Assembly: GCF_057098645.1 (NCBI RefSeq)
Contig: NZ_CM169472.1
DNA: 64,000 bases
Reading direction: 5' to 3' (one strand)
Part shown: one piece after another, positions 1,998-42,885 of the stretch
How the letters are laid out: the number at the start of each line of letters is the position of its first letter
How positions within the stretch are numbered: the stretch's first letter is position 1
Notes under the pieces: model-generated
What the model was told of the DNA's origin: nothing
What the model saw: only the letters and a program-made list of their open reading frames with translations
Database searches by the model: none
Position numbers and translations under genes: made by a program

Positions 1998-3263
1998 GTG
2001 TCAAAGGCAACCGAACAAAACGACAAGCTCAAGCGGGCGATAATTATTTCAGCAGTGCTGCATGTCATCTTATTTGCGGCGCTGATCTGGAGTTCGTTCG
2101 ATGAGAATATAGAAGCTTCAGCTGGAGGCGGCGGTGGTTCGTCCATCGACGCTGTCATGGTTGATTCAGGTGCGGTAGTTGAGCAGTACAAACGCATGCA
2201 AAGCCAGGAATCAAGCGCGAAGCGTTCTGATGAGCAGCGCAAGATGAAGGAACAGCAGGCTGCTGAAGAACTGCGTGAGAAGCAAGCGGCTGAACAGGAA
2301 CGCCTGAAGCAACTTGAGAAAGAGCGGTTAGCTGCTCAGGAACAGAAAAAGCAGGCTGAAGAAGCCGCAAAACAGGCCGAGTTAAAGCAGAAGCAAGCGG
2401 AAGAGGCGGCAGCGAAAGCGGCGGCAGATGCTAAAGCGAAGGCCGAAGCGGATGCTAAAGCTGCGGAAGATGCAGCGAAGAAAGCGGCTGCAGATGCGAA
2501 GAAAAAAGCAGAAGCAGAAGCCGCCAAAGCCGCAGCCGAAGCGCAGAAAAAAGCCGAGGCAGCAGCTGCGGCGCTGAAGAAGAAAGCGGAAGCGGCAGAA
2601 GCAGCTGCAGCTGAAGCAAGAAAGAAAGCGGCAACTGAAGCTGCTGAAAAAGCCAAGGCAGAAGCTGAGAAGAAAGCGGCTGCTGAAAAGGCTGCAGCTG
2701 ATAAGAAAGCGGCAGCAGAGAAAGCTGCAGCCGACAAAAAAGCAGCAGAAAAAGCGGCTGCAGAAAAGGCAGCAGCTGATAAGAAAGCAGCGGCGGAAAA
2801 AGCCGCCGCAGACAAAAAAGCGGCAGCTGCAAAAGCAGCAGCTGAAAAAGCCGCTGCAGCAAAAGCTGCCGCAGAGGCAGATGATATTTTCGGTGAGCTA
2901 AGCTCTGGTAAGAATGCACCGAAAACGGGGGGAGGGGCGAAAGGGAACAATGCTTCGCCTGCCGGGAGTGGTAATACTAAAAACAATGGCGCATCAGGGG
3001 CCGATATCAATAACTATGCCGGGCAGATTAAATCTGCTATTGAAAGTAAGTTCTATGACGCATCGTCCTATGCAGGCAAAACCTGTACGCTGCGCATAAA
3101 ACTGGCACCCGATGGTATGTTACTGGATATCAAACCTGAAGGTGGCGATCCCGCACTTTGTCAAGCTGCGTTGGCAGCAGCTAAACTTGCGAAGATCCCG
3201 AAACCACCAAGCCAGGCAGTATATGAAGTGTTCAAAAACGCGCCATTGGACTTCAAACCGTAA
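1998..3263 (+). CDS. tolA: TolA, with long Ala/Lys/Glu-rich helical domain II
   Basis: 421 aa, MSKATEQNDKLKRAIIISAVLHVILFAALIW..., repetitive (A/K/E)n domain at about 2300-2880, GTG start. Confidence 0.95.
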   Translation: MSKATEQNDKLKRAIIISAVLHVILFAALIWSSFDENIEASAGGGGGSSIDAVMVDSGAVVEQYKRMQSQESSAKRSDEQRKMKEQQAAEELREKQAAEQERLKQLEKERLAAQEQKKQAEEAAKQAELKQKQAEEAAAKAAADAKAKAEADAKAAEDAAKKAAADAKKKAEAEAAKAAAEAQKKAEAAAAALKKKAEAAEAAAAEARKKAATEAAEKAKAEAEKKAAAEKAAADKKAAAEKAAADKKAAEKAAAEKAAADKKAAAEKAAADKKAAAAKAAAEKAAAAKAAAEADDIFGELSSGKNAPKTGGGAKGNNASPAGSGNTKNNGASGADINNYAGQIKSAIESKFYDASSYAGKTCTLRIKLAPDGMLLDIKPEGGDPALCQAALAAAKLAKIPKPPSQAVYEVFKNAPLDFKP

Positions 3264-3395
3264 TCGCGATGTTGACTGTTCCGACGGTCAACATCAGGCA
3301 CCGGTTGCCACGGGGTTCTGGTAGTTTTGTGTATTTTAGTTTGTTAACATTCTGCTAAATTATCGTGGGCCATCGGTCCAGATAAGGGAGATATG

Positions 3396-4688
3396 ATGAA
3401 GCAGGCATTACGAGTAGCATTTGGTTTTCTCATACTGTGGGCATCAGTTCTGCATGCTGAAGTCCGCATTGTGATCGACAGCGGTGTAGATTCCGGTCGT
3501 CCTATTGGAGTTGTTCCTTTCCAGTGGGCGGGCCCTGGTGCGGCACCTGAAGATATTGGCGGCATCGTTGCTGCCGACTTGCGTAACAGCGGTAAATTTA
3601 ATCCGTTAGATCGCGCTCGTCTGCCACAGCAGCCGGGTAGTGCGCAGGAAGTACAACCAGCTGCATGGTCCGCGCTGGGCATTGACGCTGTAGTTGTCGG
3701 TCAGGTCACTCCGAATCCGGATGGTTCTTACAATGTTGCTTATCAACTTGTTGACACTGGCGGCGCACCGGGTACTGTACTTGCTCAGAACTCGTACAAA
3801 GTGAACAAGCAGTGGCTGCGTTATGCTGGTCATACCGCCAGTGATGAAGTGTTTGAAAAACTGACCGGTATTAAAGGTGCGTTCCGTACCCGTATTGCCT
3901 ACGTTGTTCAGACCAACGGCGGTCAGTTCCCGTATGAACTGCGCGTATCTGACTATGACGGTTACAACCAGTTTGTCGTTCACCGTTCACCACAGCCGCT
4001 GATGTCCCCGGCGTGGTCACCAGACGGTTCTAAACTGGCTTATGTGACCTTCGAAAGCGGTCGTTCCGCGCTGGTTATCCAAACGCTGGCAAACGGCGCT
4101 GTACGTCAGGTGGCTTCATTCCCGCGTCACAACGGTGCGCCTGCATTCTCGCCAGACGGCAGCAAACTGGCATTCGCCTTGTCGAAAACCGGTAGCCTGA
4201 ACCTGTACGTAATGGATTTGGCTTCTGGCCAGATCCGCCAGGTGACTGATGGTCGCAGTAACAATACCGAACCGACCTGGTTCCCGGACAGCCAGAACCT
4301 GGCATTTACTTCTGACCAGGCCGGTCGTCCACAGGTTTATAAAGTGAATATCAACGGCGGTGCGCCACAACGTATTACCTGGGAAGGTTCGCAGAACCAG
4401 GATGCGGATGTCAGCAGCGACGGTAAATTTATGGTAATGGTCAGCTCCAACGGTGGGCAGCAGCACATTGCCAAACAAGATCTGGCAACGGGAGGCGTAC
4501 AAGTTCTGTCGTCCACGTTCCTGGATGAAACGCCAAGTCTGGCACCTAACGGCACTATGGTAATCTACAGCTCTTCTCAGGGGATGGGATCCGTGCTGAA
4601 TTTGGTTTCTACAGATGGGCGTTTCAAAGCGCGTCTTCCGGCAACTGATGGACAGGTCAAATTCCCTGCCTGGTCGCCGTATCTGTGA
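3396..4688 (+). CDS. tolB: TolB periplasmic beta-propeller protein
   Basis: [21 protein letters not shown] signal peptide; 430 aa from the second ATG of the ORF. Confidence 0.95.
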
Positions 4689-26061: not shown

Positions 26062-27114
26062 ATGAAAAAAATACCCTGCGTGATGATGCGAGGTGGAACC
26101 TCGAGGGGCGCGTTCCTGTTAGCGGAACATTTACCCGAAGATCAAACGCAGCGCGATAAAATATTGATGGCAATTATGGGTTCCGGTAACGATCTGGAAA
26201 TTGACGGTATTGGCGGCGGTAATCCACTGACCAGTAAAGTCGCCATTATAAGCCGTTCCAGCGATCCGCGTGCTGATGTTGATTATCTGTTTGCTCAAGT
26301 TATCGTCCATGAGCAACGTGTCGATACCACGCCTAACTGCGGCAATATGCTGTCTGGCGTTGGGGCATTCGCCATTGAAAATGGTTTGATTGCAGCGACT
26401 TCGCCAGTTACTCGCGTACGTATCCGCAACGTCAATACGGGTACGTTTATCGAAGCTGATGTGCAAACGCCAAATGGTGTAGTCGAGTACGAGGGTAGCG
26501 CCAGAATTGACGGCGTACCGGGTACTGCCGCACCGGTTGCACTCACTTTCCTGAATGCCGCTGGAACCAAAACCGGAAAAGTTTTCCCGACTGATAATCA
26601 GATTGATTATTTTGACGATGTCCCGGTGACCTGTATCGATATGGCGATGCCAGTCGTCATTATTCCGGCTGAATATCTGGGAAAAACAGGCTATGAATTA
26701 CCGGCGGAACTGGATGCCGACAAAGCATTATTAGCCCGCATTGAATCTATCCGTCTACAAGCGGGTAAAACAATGGGCTTAGGCGATGTCAGTAATATGG
26801 TTATCCCTAAACCTGTGCTTATTTCTCCAGCGCAGAAAGGCGGGGCAATTAATGTGCGTTATTTTATGCCGCATTCTTGCCATCGCGCGCTGGCGATAAC
26901 CGGTGCTATTGCTATTTCCAGTAGTTGTGCATTGGAAGGCACCGTCACCCGACAAATCGTCCCTTCTGTAGGATACGGCAATATCAATATTGAACACCCC
27001 AGTGGTGCGCTCGACGTTCATTTAAGTAATGAAGGTCAGGATGCCACGACGTTACGCGCATCTGTTATTCGGACAACCAGAAAAATATTTTCCGGTGAAG
27101 TTTATCTTCCCTGA
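26062..27114 (+). CDS. ybhH: YbhH, PrpF/AcnD-accessory-like isomerase family
   Basis: 350 aa, synteny ybhD-ybhH-ybhI. Confidence 0.8.
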   Translation: MKKIPCVMMRGGTSRGAFLLAEHLPEDQTQRDKILMAIMGSGNDLEIDGIGGGNPLTSKVAIISRSSDPRADVDYLFAQVIVHEQRVDTTPNCGNMLSGVGAFAIENGLIAATSPVTRVRIRNVNTGTFIEADVQTPNGVVEYEGSARIDGVPGTAAPVALTFLNAAGTKTGKVFPTDNQIDYFDDVPVTCIDMAMPVVIIPAEYLGKTGYELPAELDADKALLARIESIRLQAGKTMGLGDVSNMVIPKPVLISPAQKGGAINVRYFMPHSCHRALAITGAIAISSSCALEGTVTRQIVPSVGYGNINIEHPSGALDVHLSNEGQDATTLRASVIRTTRKIFSGEVYLP

Positions 27115-27189: not shown

Positions 27190-28623
27190 ATGAATAAGAA
27201 ATCGTTATGGAAGCTAATTCTGATATTAGCGATCCCATGTATTATTGGTTTTATGCCAGCTCCGGCAGGATTAAGCGAACTGGCGTGGGTGCTTTTTGGT
27301 ATTTACCTGGCGGCCATTGTGGGGCTGGTTATCAAGCCTTTCCCGGAACCTGTCGTACTGTTAATTGCTGTTGCTGCCTCCATGGTGGTGGTCGGTAACT
27401 TATCCGACGGTGCGTTTAAGACCACCGCCGTATTAAGCGGTTACTCTTCAGGTACCACCTGGCTGGTGTTCTCGGCGTTTACCTTAAGCGCCGCATTTGT
27501 GACCACCGGCTTAGGTAAACGTATTGCCTATTTGCTGATTGGTAAAATTGGTAGCACTACCCTGGGGCTGGGTTACGTTACGGTATTTCTCGATCTGGTA
27601 CTGGCTCCGGCAACACCGTCTAACACCGCGCGTGCGGGCGGCATTGTGTTACCGATCATCAACAGCGTGGCGGTGGCTTTGGGGTCCGAACCGGAAAAAA
27701 GTCCGCGTCGTGTCGGACATTACCTGATGATGTCCATTTACATGGTCACCAAAACCACCAGCTATATGTTCTTTACCGCAATGGCGGGGAACATTCTGGC
27801 GCTGAAAATGATCAACGACATTCTGCACCTGCAAATTAGCTGGGGGGGATGGGCGCTGGCCGCCGGATTGCCGGGCATCATTATGCTGCTGGTTACTCCG
27901 CTGGTGATTTACACCATGTATCCGCCAGAAATTAAGAAGGTGGATAATAAAACCATCGCCAAAGCGGGCCTTGCCGAACTGGGACCGATGAAAATCCGCG
28001 AAAAAATGCTGCTCGGTGTCTTTGTGCTGGCGCTGCTGGGCTGGATTTTCAGTAAGTCCCTGGGGGTTGATGAATCCACCGTGGCAATCGTTGTTATGGC
28101 GACCATGCTGCTGCTGGGTATCGTTACCTGGGAAGACGTGGTTAAAAATAAAGGCGGCTGGAATACCTTAATCTGGTACGGCGGTATTATCGGCTTAAGC
28201 TCCTTATTATCGAAAGTTAAATTCTTCGAATGGTTAGCTGAAGTCTTTAAAAATAACCTGGCATTTGATGGTCACGGTAACGTTGCTTTCTTCGTTATTA
28301 TTTTCCTCAGCATCATCGTGCGTTATTTCTTCGCTTCCGGTAGTGCCTATATCGTTGCCATGTTGCCGGTATTTGCCATGCTGGCGAACGTCTCCGGCGC
28401 ACCGTTAATGTTAACCGCGCTGGCACTGTTGTTCTCCAACTCCTATGGCGGCATGGTTACTCACTATGGCGGCGCGGCAGGTCCGGTCATCTTTGGCGTG
28501 GGTTACAACGATATTAAATCCTGGTGGTTGGTCGGTGCGGTACTGACGATATTAACCTTCCTGGTGCATATCACCCTCGGCGTGTGGTGGTGGAATATGC
28601 TGATCGGCTGGAACATGCTGTAA
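27190..28623 (+). CDS. ybhI: YbhI, DASS-family di/tricarboxylate transporter
   Basis: 477 aa polytopic membrane protein. Confidence 0.85.
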   Translation: MNKKSLWKLILILAIPCIIGFMPAPAGLSELAWVLFGIYLAAIVGLVIKPFPEPVVLLIAVAASMVVVGNLSDGAFKTTAVLSGYSSGTTWLVFSAFTLSAAFVTTGLGKRIAYLLIGKIGSTTLGLGYVTVFLDLVLAPATPSNTARAGGIVLPIINSVAVALGSEPEKSPRRVGHYLMMSIYMVTKTTSYMFFTAMAGNILALKMINDILHLQISWGGWALAAGLPGIIMLLVTPLVIYTMYPPEIKKVDNKTIAKAGLAELGPMKIREKMLLGVFVLALLGWIFSKSLGVDESTVAIVVMATMLLLGIVTWEDVVKNKGGWNTLIWYGGIIGLSSLLSKVKFFEWLAEVFKNNLAFDGHGNVAFFVIIFLSIIVRYFFASGSAYIVAMLPVFAMLANVSGAPLMLTALALLFSNSYGGMVTHYGGAAGPVIFGVGYNDIKSWWLVGAVLTILTFLVHITLGVWWWNMLIGWNML

Positions 28624-33940: not shown

Positions 33941-34099
33941 TTGGTGTTCTTTCAGTTCTTCAATTCGAATATTGGTTATGTCTGCATGTGCTATCTGCGC
34001 CCATATCATCCAGTGGTCATAGCAGTCATTGATGTTCTCTGCTTCGATAACTCTGTTGAATGGTTCTCCATTCCATTCACCTGTGACTCGGAAGTGCAT
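33932..34099 (-). CDS. Lambda orf55-like small protein
   Basis: 55-aa ORF MHFRVTGEWNGEPFNRVIEAENINDCYDHWMIWAQIAHADITNIRIEELKEHQAA, below the ORF-track cutoff. Confidence 0.7.
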   Translation of the reverse strand: MHFRVTGEWNGEPFNRVIEAENINDCYDHWMIWAQIAHADITNIRIEELKEHQAA

Positions 34100-34341
34100 T
34101 TATCATCTCCATAAAACAAAACCCGCCGTAGCGAGTTCAGATAAAAGAAATCCTCGTCAGTGCGAGGATGCTGTTCATTGCTGCTATACACTTTTTTGCT
34201 CTCAACGTAAGCGGTAGCTCATTCTGTTGGGTTGGTGCAGTTGCTTTTAGGAAATGCTATTTACCCCTTAAACGTCGGCTGAAAGAGCTAAAATCCATGC
34301 AAAAAATTTACGCAATTTTGTGTATTATTGTGCAGTAAGTA

Positions 34342-34944
34342 ATGAGCTATTTTCTGCGCAAAAAATGGATGGTAAATTTGTCCGGGGCAGGAAAAATTTT
34401 ATGGGCGCTAAACATGAAAAAAGATTCGTATCCTTATTTGATTTGCATGACAGTTTCAGGCCTGATCTTTATTTTCCTTTTCTTCTGGTGGCGGGCAGAT
34501 ATTTACAGGGTCACGTTTCTTAATCAGAGTATATCCCACTATTACATTCTGTTTAGCATGGGAATAGCTTTTCTGTTATCTCTGTTTTGGGTTAAGAAGG
34601 GGATAGTAAAACAAAGCGGCTGGAAGAGTCTGTCAGCATACCTTAAGGTTTATGCAGGGATGTGCATATTTGCTGGATTTTTTCTGATTATACCCCTTAC
34701 AACACTAACTTATTTTTTGCCTGGAGAGACATCGTCTTATGTTGCACCGTATCGGTATACTTCCGGTAGTTCAAAAAGTTGTTCTGGAGCTGAGGTGGAT
34801 GACCCCGATCTACATGAGAATATTCGCATTTGCTATCCGTATGGCAATTATGAGTACGATAATATTATCTATGTTGAAAAGAAAATTAATACATTAGGTG
34901 CGGTAGTAACATATGCACAGACCGCGCGTGATGATACTGAATGA
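34342..34944 (+). CDS. Hypothetical membrane protein (3-4 predicted TM helices plus C-terminal soluble domain); start uncertain
   Basis: 200-aa ORF, visibly AT-rich, opposite strand to the pL operon, occupying the lambda ea8.5/ea22 slot. Confidence 0.5.
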   Translation: MSYFLRKKWMVNLSGAGKILWALNMKKDSYPYLICMTVSGLIFIFLFFWWRADIYRVTFLNQSISHYYILFSMGIAFLLSLFWVKKGIVKQSGWKSLSAYLKVYAGMCIFAGFFLIIPLTTLTYFLPGETSSYVAPYRYTSGSSKSCSGAEVDDPDLHENIRICYPYGNYEYDNIIYVEKKINTLGAVVTYAQTARDDTE

Positions 34945-35154
34945 GATAGTATATAGCGGGCAAGTTTTAGTTAATTTATCGAGGTAATATAATTTACCTC
35001 GACTCGTTTATTCTGGTATTAATATTTCGCTTTACGATCGATTTTTATCTGATGATATCATGCGGTTTTCATATACTGACTTACTGTCTTTTCTCCGTTA
35101 GCGATTTTCTCCTGCTCAGCGATGATTTTATCTTTGGCTTCTAGTTAATTTCGC

Positions 35155-38666: not shown

Positions 38667-38685
38667 CTGTTCATATCCTCACAGA

Positions 38686-38712
38686 TAAAAAATCGCCCTC
38701 ATCTTGGAGGGC
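38686..38712 (-). terminator. Intrinsic terminator in the pL operon, upstream of ea10
   Basis: Minus strand gccctc-caagat-gagggc followed by gATTTTTT. Confidence 0.55.
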
Positions 38713-38854
38713 AAAGAAGATTTCCAATAATCAGAACAAGTCGGCTCCTGTTTAGTTACGAGCGACATTGCTCCGTGTATTCACTCGTTGGAATGAATAC
38801 ACAGCGCTGTGTTTATTCTGTTGTTTGCGTGAAAATGAAATCCGCCTGAGCGGG

Positions 38855-39736
38855 TTATGACCACTTTTTGTTTGGGTTTCGTTGGTGAGCGTGGTTTACA
38901 GGATTATTTGATATACCCCATAACTCTGACTCGCTTATCTCTACACGAGAGAAAGACCTGCTTTCTTTCAGTTCTTTTATAAACCTAGAACCTAAGATGA
39001 CATCTATTGTACCAGAAAGTTCTTGTAAAAGATCTTTGTTTTTTCTGAGGAAGAAAATATCTTCTTTATATTTAATTTTTACATAGAATTTATTCTGTAT
39101 TTTTAATATATCAAAGCATGGCAGATATCTATATCCCTCATATTTTCGCCACTGCTTAACAATTATAACATCTTTTTCATTTACTGCATTAATCAGCCCA
39201 AGACCAAGTACAGGTATGAATATTCTATTGTCTGCCGAAAGCGTACAATTATCACCACCAGGCAAATATGTATAAATCATGTCGGAATTTTTATACGCAT
39301 CAACGAATGCACGTAAGAAGCGTACATATTTTTGCCATCCGTTTATACCGAATTTACCATATAAGTATTCTTTATTTGTTAGAAGAAAACTATTTGTATC
39401 AGGATCCTTATCTACAGACCTGTCGATAAGATCTCCAACTACGTTTACAAAGTCAAAGACAGAGTTTAATAAGAACAATTGTCTTTCAGTAGGGCGAATT
39501 TCAATTATGTAGCCAGGATGAAGACGATATTGCATCTGCTTACGAAGTATACCGAACGCTTGGGTCCGAGCATCTGAAAGCAACTTCTTGTCGCCATCGC
39601 CGTGAGCATTGTTTCTAATAAAACTGATATAATTTGCTAATTTTTCAGCCTCTTTTTTGTGTTTTTTTCGCTCTGATGCTGAGTCTATTGGTTTTGGTAT
39701 GGACTTGTAATCAATCTTCTTCATTACGTACCTCAT
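38855..39736 (-). CDS. Uncharacterised 293-aa protein translationally coupled to N (lambda ral/sieB slot)
   Basis: Start ATG overlaps the N stop (ATGA), visibly AT-rich, lambda ral/sieB absent at this position; no motif I can assign. Confidence 0.6.
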   Translation of the reverse strand: MRYVMKKIDYKSIPKPIDSASERKKHKKEAEKLANYISFIRNNAHGDGDKKLLSDARTQAFGILRKQMQYRLHPGYIIEIRPTERQLFLLNSVFDFVNVVGDLIDRSVDKDPDTNSFLLTNKEYLYGKFGINGWQKYVRFLRAFVDAYKNSDMIYTYLPGGDNCTLSADNRIFIPVLGLGLINAVNEKDVIIVKQWRKYEGYRYLPCFDILKIQNKFYVKIKYKEDIFFLRKNKDLLQELSGTIDVILGSRFIKELKESRSFSRVEISESELWGISNNPVNHAHQRNPNKKWS

Positions 39737-40056
39737 GCCAATGGAATGGATTCCCCTTTAACCTTTTGTCTTCCTTGACAAGTTATACCGAACTCACCTG
39801 GCTTGCTATACCAAACTCGATGATTCTTGCGCTCAATACGTTGCAGGTTGCTTTCAATCTGTTCGTGGTATTCAGCCAGCACCGTAAGGTCTATCGGATT
39901 CAGTGCGCTTTCTACTCGTGATTTCGGTTTGCGATTCAGCGAGAGAATAGGGCGGTTAACTGGTTTAGCGCTTACCCCAACCAACAGGGGATTTGCTGCT
40001 TTCCATTGAGCCTGTTTCTCTGCGCGACGTTCGCGGCGGCGTGTTTGTGCATCCAT
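39733..40056 (-). CDS. N: Lambda antiterminator N
   Basis: 107 aa, MDAQTRRRERRAEKQAQWKAANPLLVGVSAKPVNRPILSLNRKPKSRVESALNPIDLTVLAEYH... Confidence 0.9.
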   Translation of the reverse strand: MDAQTRRRERRAEKQAQWKAANPLLVGVSAKPVNRPILSLNRKPKSRVESALNPIDLTVLAEYHEQIESNLQRIERKNHRVWYSKPGEFGITCQGRQKVKGESIPLA

Positions 40057-40213
40057 CTGGATTCTCCTGTCAGTTAGCTTTGGTTGTGTGTGGGAGTCGT
40101 AGTCCTGAACGAAAACACCCCGCAATGGCACATTGGCAGCTAATCCGGATTCGCACTTCCGGCCAATGCTTCGTTTCGTATCACACACACCAAAGCCTTC
40201 TGCTTTGAATGCT

Positions 40214-40228
40214 GCCCTTCTTCAGGGC
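40214..40228 (-). promoter_or_regulatory. nutL boxB hairpin
   Basis: Minus-strand GCCCTGAAGAAGGGC, the lambda boxB sequence, between pL and N. Confidence 0.65.
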
Positions 40229-40279
40229 TTAATTTTTAAGAGCCTCACCTTCAATGGTGGTCAGTGCGTCCTGCTGATG

Positions 40280-41575: not shown

Positions 41576-41617
41576 TGAACCGCCCCGGGTTTCCTGGAGA
41601 GTATTTTATCTGTGAAC

Positions 41618-42508
41618 TCAGGCTGCCAGATCATTATTTCCGATGGAAGCATAATAAGCTTTTTCTGCTTCTGCCGGAGGAATATGGCCCAGCCTTTCCA
41701 GCAATCGTCGATTGTTATACCAGTCCACCCACGTGAGTGTGGCCAGTTCCACTTCTGCACGGTTTTTCCAGCTCTTACGGTGTATTACCTCCGCTTTGTA
41801 AAGACCATTGATGCTCTCCGCCATCGCGTTGTCATACGAGTCGCCAGTACTCCCTGTTGATGCCAGTAATCCGGCTTCCTTAAGCCGCTGCGTGTAGGCC
41901 AGCGATACATACTGAGAACCTTTATCACTGTGATGGATTGTGCCGGACGGCCGACGGGCCCACAACGCCTGCTCCAGTGCATCCAGCACGAATGTTGTTT
42001 CCATGGATGATGAGACCTGCCATCCCACGATGTATCCGGCGAACACATCAATGATGAACGCCACATAAACGAAGCCCCGCCATGTGCTGACGTAAGTAAA
42101 ATCAGCCACCCACAGCTGGTCAGGTCGTTCTGCCACGAACTGACGGTTTACGCGGTCGCCTGCGGCAACGGCTTTCCGGCTGATGGTCGTACGGACCTTT
42201 TTACCCCGGAGAACACCGGCAAGTCCCATAACTGCCATGAGACGTGCCACAGTGCATCTGGCCACTCTGATACCTTCCCGTAACAACTGACGCCAGACTT
42301 TACGCACACCGTATACCTGGTGATTTTCATCGTATACGCGCTGTATCTCTTTCTTCAGCCAGTCATCGTGCTGCGCACGGGCACTGCGTTTATCCGGATG
42401 ATGTCGCTGTTGCTGACAGTGGTAATACGTTGACGGGGCAATATGCAGTTCGCTGCATAGCGGTCCGACCCCGTACTGCTCACGCAGCTTATCCAGCAGT
42501 GGCATCAT
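41618..42508 (-). CDS. IS629-like transposase OrfB (DDE/integrase domain)
   Basis: 296-aa ORF with IS3-family DDE region ([10 protein letters not shown]...[11 protein letters not shown]). Confidence 0.85.
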
Positions 42509-42831
42509 TTTTTCCAGAGGCGGTCGAACTCCGCCTTCGCAAAATAAGCGGAAGCCTGGCGAAGGATATCGTTACTGCGGCGCAGTTCACGATTTTCACG
42601 CTCCAGCTCTTTCAGACGCTGACGTTCAGCGGTGGTGAGCCCGCCATCACCGCCCCCGGTATCCCGCTCATGCTGGCGAACCCAGACACGCAGAGTCTCC
42701 GGCGTACAGCCAATCTTTGGAGCAATGGAACAAATTGTCGCCCATTGTGAGTCATATTCATCCTGACTTTCCAGAACCATACGAATCGCCCGCTGACGGA
42801 CTTCGGGGGAAAAACGAGTATTTTTAGTCAT
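42505..42831 (-). CDS. IS629-like transposase OrfA (HTH)
   Basis: 108 aa, [50 protein letters not shown]... Confidence 0.85.
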
Positions 42832-42885
42832 CCTGTTTACCTCTTTCTCAGGGAGTTTAGTCTCCAGGATTTCCGGGGCGGTTCA

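Follow-up and report, generated by a model that had tools for sequence, protein, structure and literature searches.

A phage 434 early gene ends in the C-terminal peptide of Nun and has a predicted TnpB-like fold

Introduction

What does a lambdoid prophage encode directly downstream of antiterminator N when ral and sieB are missing? The question arises in a 64,000-nucleotide stretch of DNA (the window) from contig NZ_CM169472.1 of RefSeq assembly GCF_057098645.1, where an AT-rich open reading frame (ORF), here called orf289, follows N on the minus strand. An earlier note on this DNA had proposed the gene as a candidate for exclusion, abortive infection or anti-defence, and had assigned no known motif to its protein. 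The latter statement does not hold, since the last 14 residues of the protein, VNHAHQRNPNKKWS, are those of the HK022 Nun protein, as the GenBank record of phage 434 already states. Here we favour, with slightly better than even confidence, the reading that orf289 encodes a Nun-class elongation-arrest factor in which the arginine-rich motif has been replaced by a TnpB-like targeting module.

The orf289 protein is 100% identical to CPT_434_48 of phage 434, which GenBank names “Nun C-terminal peptide-containing protein”, and the region around the gene is 99.9–100% identical to that phage. A comparison with 50,697 phage records recovered orf289 from 434 and 434B only. Of 5426 complete E. coli genomes, 92 (~1.7%) carry the gene, always under the label “hypothetical protein”; the ORF is intact in 82–92 of the 5426 genomes, at least 82. 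The 434 genome announcement does not mention orf289, and our literature searches found neither a functional study of the gene or a linked 434 exclusion phenotype nor any work combining TnpB and Nun. The Nun tail itself had thus been noted in the GenBank record, whereas these searches returned no earlier description of the TnpB-like fold, the selection on the tail, its occurrence on two architectures or the synteny at N and the nun slot set out below.

The C-terminal tail is that of Nun

The 14 residues at the end of orf289 are identical at 14 of 14 positions to HK022 Nun residues 96–109. They include Nun N97, H98, H100, R102, K106, K107 and W108 together with the terminal carboxylate, a region that contacts the β′ rudder, the RNA, the template DNA and the downstream DNA (Kang et al.). 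In the structure of the Nun-elongation complex, only Nun residues 87–109 are ordered. N97, H98 and H100 touch the β′ rudder, RNA and template DNA, residues 102–109 sit in a pocket that has the hybrid on one side and the downstream duplex on the other, and R102 is paired with the terminal carboxylate. Without its last 13 residues Nun no longer binds RNA polymerase (PMC5386594), and binding is strongly weakened by R94A, H93 and R94 being the residues that contact upstream DNA. PHROG 5632, “Nun-like transcription termination factor”, matches orf289 at residues 274–293 in the numbering of the longer 293-residue ORF (E 7e-5), and both the PHROG and the BLAST matches to Nun are limited to the tail.

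Homologue searches, two word-indexed and one exhaustive, found only ~20 relatives. Homologues that are 68, 48, 47, 42 and 37% identical to orf289, as well as variants from IMG/VR, all end in VNHAH(Q/R/A/N)R(N/D)xxKKW(S). Within 13 tail codons, family members differ by 2–8 synonymous and only 0–3 nonsynonymous changes, the latter falling at Nun positions 101 and 103–105. In the 19 codons upstream of the tail, differences between homologues are almost all nonsynonymous. Because changes in the tail are dominated by synonymous ones while those in the preceding linker are mostly nonsynonymous, the codon comparison indicates that the orf289-family tail is under purifying selection.

At the DNA level, 434 and HK022 are 94.7% identical from ~43 nucleotides before the stop codon to the HK022 IS903 element, and again past IS903. 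Since this shared block starts inside the gene, a mosaic junction lies within orf289. HK022 positions 27658–27770 and 26489–26600 match window positions 38788–38900, with IS903 splitting the block 60–70 nucleotides after the nun stop; the 9-bp target duplication expected of the insertion is seen in that window positions 38796–38788 match both sides.

The junction raises the question of whether orf289 is a functionless mosaic relic, fused in frame by chance when a nun-type phage recombined with an unrelated gene, since HK022 identity begins within the gene and continues beyond its end. The architecture nevertheless persists between proteins that are only 37–68% identical and whose tail codons have diverged at synonymous sites, and the ORF is intact in the E. 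coli genomes counted above and in several other lineages. Accidental fusion is ruled out because divergent homologues keep the tail, and we regard the relic as largely refuted and scarcely credible.

To place the tail more widely, IMG/VR was scanned with the degenerate pattern NHAHxRxxxKKW, which recovered at least 120 loci. Among the matches listed, Nun-tail ORFs have essentially two architectures: small Nun-like proteins and the ~290-residue orf289 family. Most of the small proteins listed are 79–123 residues long with diverse N-terminal arginine-rich motifs, all contain, ahead of the tail, the conserved segment (D/E)DxM(H/N/Y)(R/K)VV, which corresponds to Nun 88–96, and some begin with a lambda-N-like N-terminus. 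The other listed ORFs with the pattern are short fragments at contig ends and one 767-residue ORF in which the pattern is not C-terminal. Five IMG/VR loci (L047, L048, L099, L111 and L112) encode 88-residue proteins with a lambda-N-like N-terminus (MDAQARRREKRKEKQEEWK...) and a Nun tail, which on sequence look like N/Nun hybrids. Another locus, L083, has two distinct Nun-tail ORFs ~260 nucleotides apart (3257–3591).

The protein body has a predicted WED-REC fold

The orf289 protein has no match in Pfam, NCBIfam or PADLOC, and a profile search of PDB sequences gave nothing relevant. PADLOC-DB v2 returned 0 defence families at E<=1. Pfam matched no member of the orf289 family, and OrfB_IS605 and OrfB_Zn_ribbon were not matched even at E<=10.

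An AlphaFold2 model of the 434 protein has a mean pLDDT (predicted local distance difference test) of 74, with 80–90 in the core. It consists of helices at residues 16–38 and 43–65, a strand at 72–77, a helical bundle at 80–145, strands at 152–218, a helix at 221–258 and a disordered tail. In this model, residues 67–220 are predicted to adopt a TnpB/Cas12-like WED-REC fold, and the only fold matches are RNA-guided proteins. The fold similarity is well supported; homology of orf289 to TnpB is not demonstrated. Comparison by hhalign with a 63-sequence TnpB N-terminal profile aligned 27–29 columns at strand 1 and the start of helix 1, the equivalent position in both, with a probability of 6–8%, which is not significant, and hhalign against ISDra2 TnpB was also not significant. 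After the WED strands the model has only one helix and the disordered tail, and thus no RuvC D-E-D residues and no zinc-ribbon/TNB. In TnpB and Cas12, WED-REC holds the guide-RNA scaffold and reads the target-adjacent or protospacer-adjacent motif (TAM/PAM) in DNA.

Residues 1–66 form a basic helical hairpin (computed isoelectric point 9.9) with a conserved LP(K/R)P(I/L)D motif that is confined to the Nun-tailed subfamily and absent in distant homologues. The sequence of its N-terminal Lys-rich helix is not kept among homologues, even beside the same N type. We considered this helix as a boxB-binding motif, as AEKLANY in 434 resembles by eye AEKQAQW in N and WEKRIAY in Nun, and dropped the candidate when the homologue at locus L003, next to the same N type, was seen to lack the pattern.

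The exhaustive search also found a second, distant group of homologues (P0010–P0018; loci L014–L017) with 22–26% identity and 210–250 residues, lacking the first ~70 residues. These have the same predicted WED-REC-only fold and end in ...G(K/R)xVxGGxxExGKKR rather than in a Nun tail. One member, P0018, is found on plasmid-like contigs, where it is preceded by a Rep gene (PF03090) and a conserved 108-residue ORF, with a MazE/PemK pair nearby. In the AlphaFold database, five uncharacterised proteins of 219–448 residues from Neisseria, Paraburkholderia and Crenobacter (A0A7X2GW32, A0A7W8L906, K0DNP6, A0A5C6VAF2 and A0A4T0UIY2) match the model over ~150 columns with Foldseek E values of 1e-5 to 2e-6 and ~20% identity. 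These five could represent additional WED-REC proteins that lack a nuclease and have other domains attached.

The fold suggests a way in which the protein could be aimed. If WED-REC still bound a guide RNA, base pairing would place the Nun peptide on polymerases at a complementary target. The exclusively RNA-guided fold matches agree with this, as does the behaviour of nuclease-dead TnpB relatives, which are known as RNA-guided regulators of transcription (PMC10705468, PMC12259091). On the other hand, the RuvC/zinc-ribbon half, the source of much of the guide-RNA binding in TnpB, is missing. The 3′ flanks of six divergent loci have nothing in common except terminator hairpins, the 5′ side is taken by N, there are no IS200/IS605 ends, and Rfam gave no RNA adjoining orf289, its sole match being the cIII thermoregulator. 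We therefore judge RNA-guided arrest to be very unlikely. Only a little less doubtful is the broader idea of a programmable polymerase jammer, in which a TnpB/Cas12-derived module, possibly using RNA or reading a TAM-like motif, would deliver the Nun peptide at chosen sites while N- or put-modified complexes were immune.

The position next to N or in the nun slot is conserved

Comparison of the regions downstream of N shows where the family sits. In the window and at loci L003, L006/L107, L040 and L059, the orf289-family gene lies 1–22 nucleotides after N, and the preceding N proteins differ among lineages in their arginine-rich motifs. At L018 and L132 there is no N. There the homologue is preceded by a repressor gene and by a leader with 74% overall identity to HK022 oL/pL-putL and ~95% over putL; with an HK022-like putL leader directly upstream, the gene occupies the nun slot. 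These two loci (L018 at 2800–3983; IMG/VR and Logan contigs) are from HK022-type phages and carry homologue P0017, 290 residues and 42% identical to orf289, where HK022 has nun. In every lineage an intrinsic terminator lies 5–30 nucleotides 3′ of the orf289-family stop codon, and divergent homologues carry strong terminators where 434 has a weak post-stop hairpin.

The position after N or in the nun slot is thus conserved across divergent lambdoid phages. The earlier note had placed the gene in a variable slot; on this comparison it is not a chance occupant, and the conserved position points to a functional tie with early transcription control. At L006 (6864–7049) and L107 (8852–9037), a frame just downstream of the orf289 homologue encodes ...SVCLP(E/D)(I/V)A(I/L)Y..., similar to the C-terminus of the N-like ORFs at L040 and L059. 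From its sequence, this frame looks like an N-gene scar left by insertion of an N-orf289 cassette. A role for orf289 as an anti-Nun decoy was also considered and rejected, since the gene stands in for nun in a put phage of the HK022 type, and such a phage has no need to be shielded from Nun.

The linkage to N could also be that of a poison and its antidote. As a general jammer, orf289 would arrest any unmodified elongation complex, leading to host shut-off or broad exclusion, while phage complexes would escape because N or put RNA had already remodelled the cleft. Consistent with this, in at least five lineages the gene adjoins N and shares its transcript, and elsewhere it comes after putL. 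Lambda N reportedly passes through the RNA polymerase hybrid cavity (PMC9378689), apparently the region that the Nun tail occupies, and saturating Nun arrests complexes without nut. General jamming, however, does not account for the retention of 150 residues folded for nucleic-acid recognition, nor for that of the conserved N-terminal domain. It would also poison phage late transcription and leaky lysogens, yet the gene is intact in the E. coli genomes noted above. We consider it an unlikely explanation.

Organisation of the locus and state of the prophage

The features of the locus, all on the minus strand, are as follows.

40213..40278, minus strand: pL transcript start (~40278) and nutL boxB hairpin GCCCTGAAGAAGGGC (40229–40213), transferred from the 434 annotation through a 99.9% alignment.
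39733..40056, minus strand: antiterminator N, lambda type, 107 residues; 92% DNA identity to lambda N and “antiterminator” in 434.
38855..39724, minus strand (alternative ATG at 39736, 293 residues): orf289, CPT_434_48 of phage 434; full-length match to PHROG 12139 (unknown function).
39527..39724, minus strand: orf289 residues 1–66, Lys-rich helical hairpin (AlphaFold2 helices 16–38 and 43–65).
39065..39526, minus strand: orf289 residues 67–220, predicted TnpB/Cas12-like WED-REC module (strand 1, helical REC insert, WED strands).
38900..39064, minus strand: orf289 residues 221–275, long helix (221–258) followed by a variable disordered linker, from the AlphaFold2 model.
38858..38899, minus strand: orf289 residues 276–289, VNHAHQRNPNKKWS, Nun-type RNA-polymerase-arrest peptide at the extreme C-terminus.
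38788..38900, minus strand: mosaic block in common with HK022, 94.7% DNA identity, beginning within the tail codons.
38832..38854, minus strand: weak terminator-like hairpin CCCGCTCAGGCGG and T-rich ATTTCATTTT, directly 3′ of the orf289 stop.
38685..38714, minus strand: strong intrinsic terminator with an 8-bp stem and a T run, found by scanning, which ends the pL-N-orf289 unit; a terminator is also annotated in 434.

The nutL boxB hairpin also appears on the opposite strand in the terminator and hairpin scan.

The 293-residue ORF that the earlier note described (38855..39736, minus strand) is present, and its first ATG does share an ATGA with the N stop codon. The second ATG, 12 nucleotides downstream at 39724, is the likely start by sequence comparison. 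It lies 8 nucleotides past the N stop with an AGG Shine-Dalgarno sequence overlapping that stop, it fits the N-termini of all homologues, and it is the start used in both GenBank (434) and RefSeq, giving 289 residues. Of the proposed translational coupling, the tight linkage to N stands, though the linkage is probably not through the ATGA overlap, the conserved start being the second one. Other parts of the earlier description agree with what we found. As the first gene after N, orf289 is AT-rich (34.6% GC, compared with 48.8% for N, 51.9% for exo-bet-gam and 49.5% for the whole window), and the downstream intrinsic terminator was recovered at 38714..38685. The absence of ral and sieB was borne out by BLAST against lambda, in which N is matched at 40279–39743 (92%) and the match returns at 38826 (98%). 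From this break in homology, lambda 34065–35046 (ral, orf28 and sieB) has been swapped for window 38827–39742, and all three lambda genes are absent from the locus.

The window contains a 434 prophage with an IS3 insertion and a deletion. The IS3 segment (41576–42885, 1310 bp) carries orfB (41618–42508) and orfA (42505–42831) on the minus strand. It stands in place of 1133 bp of phage 434 that comprise the 3′ part of cro, nutR, cII and the 5′ part of O, and cro is truncated after ~10 codons. With the loss of cro, nutR, cII and O sequences the prophage is defective, but cI-hex and pL-nutL-N-orf289 are still intact. A consensus scan of window 40409–40056 on the minus strand, from the hex stop to the N start, found no intrinsic terminator. 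Barring Rho-dependent termination, transcripts from pRM might therefore run into N and orf289 in a lysogen.

A model for orf289

Established for orf289 are the identity of its tail and the selective conservation of that tail, the predicted fold, and the position after N or in the nun slot. Nun picks its targets through an arginine-rich motif that binds boxB RNA. In the model that we favour, orf289 would be transcribed from pL together with N, in a unit of pL, nutL, N, orf289 and terminator. Its disordered C-terminal peptide would enter the active-site cleft of an elongating E. coli RNA polymerase in the manner of the identical Nun peptide, tying the polymerase to the nucleic acids and blocking translocation. 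The WED-REC module and the basic N-terminal hairpin would recognise a specific nucleic-acid feature of the target, be it a competitor phage or some other transcription unit; this feature would be either a structure in the nascent RNA or duplex DNA. Like Nun, the protein would thereby exclude rival phages. By analogy with Nun and with TnpB/Cas12, then, we infer for orf289 polymerase binding and arrest, nucleic-acid targeting by WED-REC and exclusion of rivals.

Several observations weigh against this model. The equivalent of Nun residues 87–95, including H93 and R94, is lacking in orf289, as is the (D/E)DxM(H/N/Y)(R/K)VV segment; residues before V276 are variable, with no H-R pair. There is no recognisable arginine-rich motif. 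The 434 tail lies in a recent recombination block with HK022, so that recent transfer contributes to the identity of this particular allele. The WED-REC assignment is drawn from predicted structures whose underlying alignments are shallow (12–13 sequences), and the profile-profile comparison with TnpB was not significant. Finally, 434 itself has lambda-type nut sites, and Nun-like action there would hit 434; the target must therefore differ.

Some of these points would also fit a tail that does not act on RNA polymerase, with orf289 working through another mechanism (replication-blocking nucleic-acid binding or an abortive-infection trigger) or regulating its own early operon. The missing counterpart of Nun 87–95 is a segment that contributes to polymerase binding, and the distant homologues with the same fold and a different C-terminus suggest a possible independent function for the core. 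Against this stand the strong purifying selection that falls exactly on the Nun contact residues across divergent homologues, the location of the tail at the extreme C-terminus, which Nun requires for pairing of its carboxylate with R102, and the positional interchangeability of orf289 with nun. We find this alternative improbable.

Since orf289 ends in the arrest peptide of Nun, a known superinfection-exclusion protein, an exclusion-type role is the best-supported reading. That portion of the original functional proposal survives through the Nun tail, whereas the empty PADLOC, Pfam and NCBIfam searches give nothing for anti-restriction, anti-defence or abortive infection.

Discussion

The likeness to HK022 Nun (P18683; PDB 6ALG) is concentrated at the C-terminus, where the identical residues include all of the Kang et al. 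contacts from N97 to S109. In both proteins this peptide is at the extreme C-terminus, and in orf289 it is predicted to be disordered. Both genes belong to the pL early operon, with one orf289 lineage in the same slot after putL. The two proteins differ in most other respects. At 289 residues, compared with 109 for Nun, orf289 lacks the arginine-rich boxB-binding motif and the 88–95 segment with H93 and R94, places ~150 residues in the predicted TnpB/Cas12 WED-REC fold, and usually coexists with N rather than replacing it.

With ISDra2 TnpB (8H1J) and RdCas12n (9UDI), orf289 shares the predicted WED-REC fold of the N-terminal half and, by eye, weak motifs in the same order: h-h-x-h-x-P-x-x-x-Q in strand 1 and R-h-x-h-P-x-L-G in the WED strands. 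Unlike these proteins, it has no RuvC, zinc-ribbon/TNB, transposon ends or detectable guide RNA, its sequence similarity to them is not significant (Pfam, NCBIfam and hhalign), and its context is a lambdoid pL operon rather than IS200/IS605 or CRISPR. Regulators of the TldR/dCas12f type offer a parallel in concept, a TnpB-derived recognition scaffold repurposed to control RNA polymerase. Those proteins, however, keep an inactivated RuvC and a guide RNA and act as roadblocks or recruit sigma factors, whereas orf289 lacks the whole C-terminal half and would act by a polymerase-inserted peptide. Lambda SieB and Ral are likewise products of accessory genes in the N-ea10 interval of the pL operon, but orf289 has no sequence or family similarity to them.

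To our knowledge, Nun has been the single textbook phage protein that jams elongating RNA polymerase by a C-terminal peptide. The orf289 family indicates that the arrest peptide is a portable module, found on at least two unrelated targeting devices, one of them carried by the classical phage 434 and by ~1.7% of complete E. coli genomes. The question that orf289 poses can be addressed with existing Nun reagents, including arrest assays and Nun-resistant rpoC alleles. Were the doubtful programmable-jammer idea true, it would be a previously unseen TnpB exaptation and would add a second targeting route, a modular one, for the Nun peptide. If the fold prediction is true, orf289 would represent a new evolutionary outcome for the TnpB scaffold, in which the nuclease half was lost and a polymerase-invading peptide gained, and might offer a compact, naturally occurring template for arresting transcription at chosen targets.
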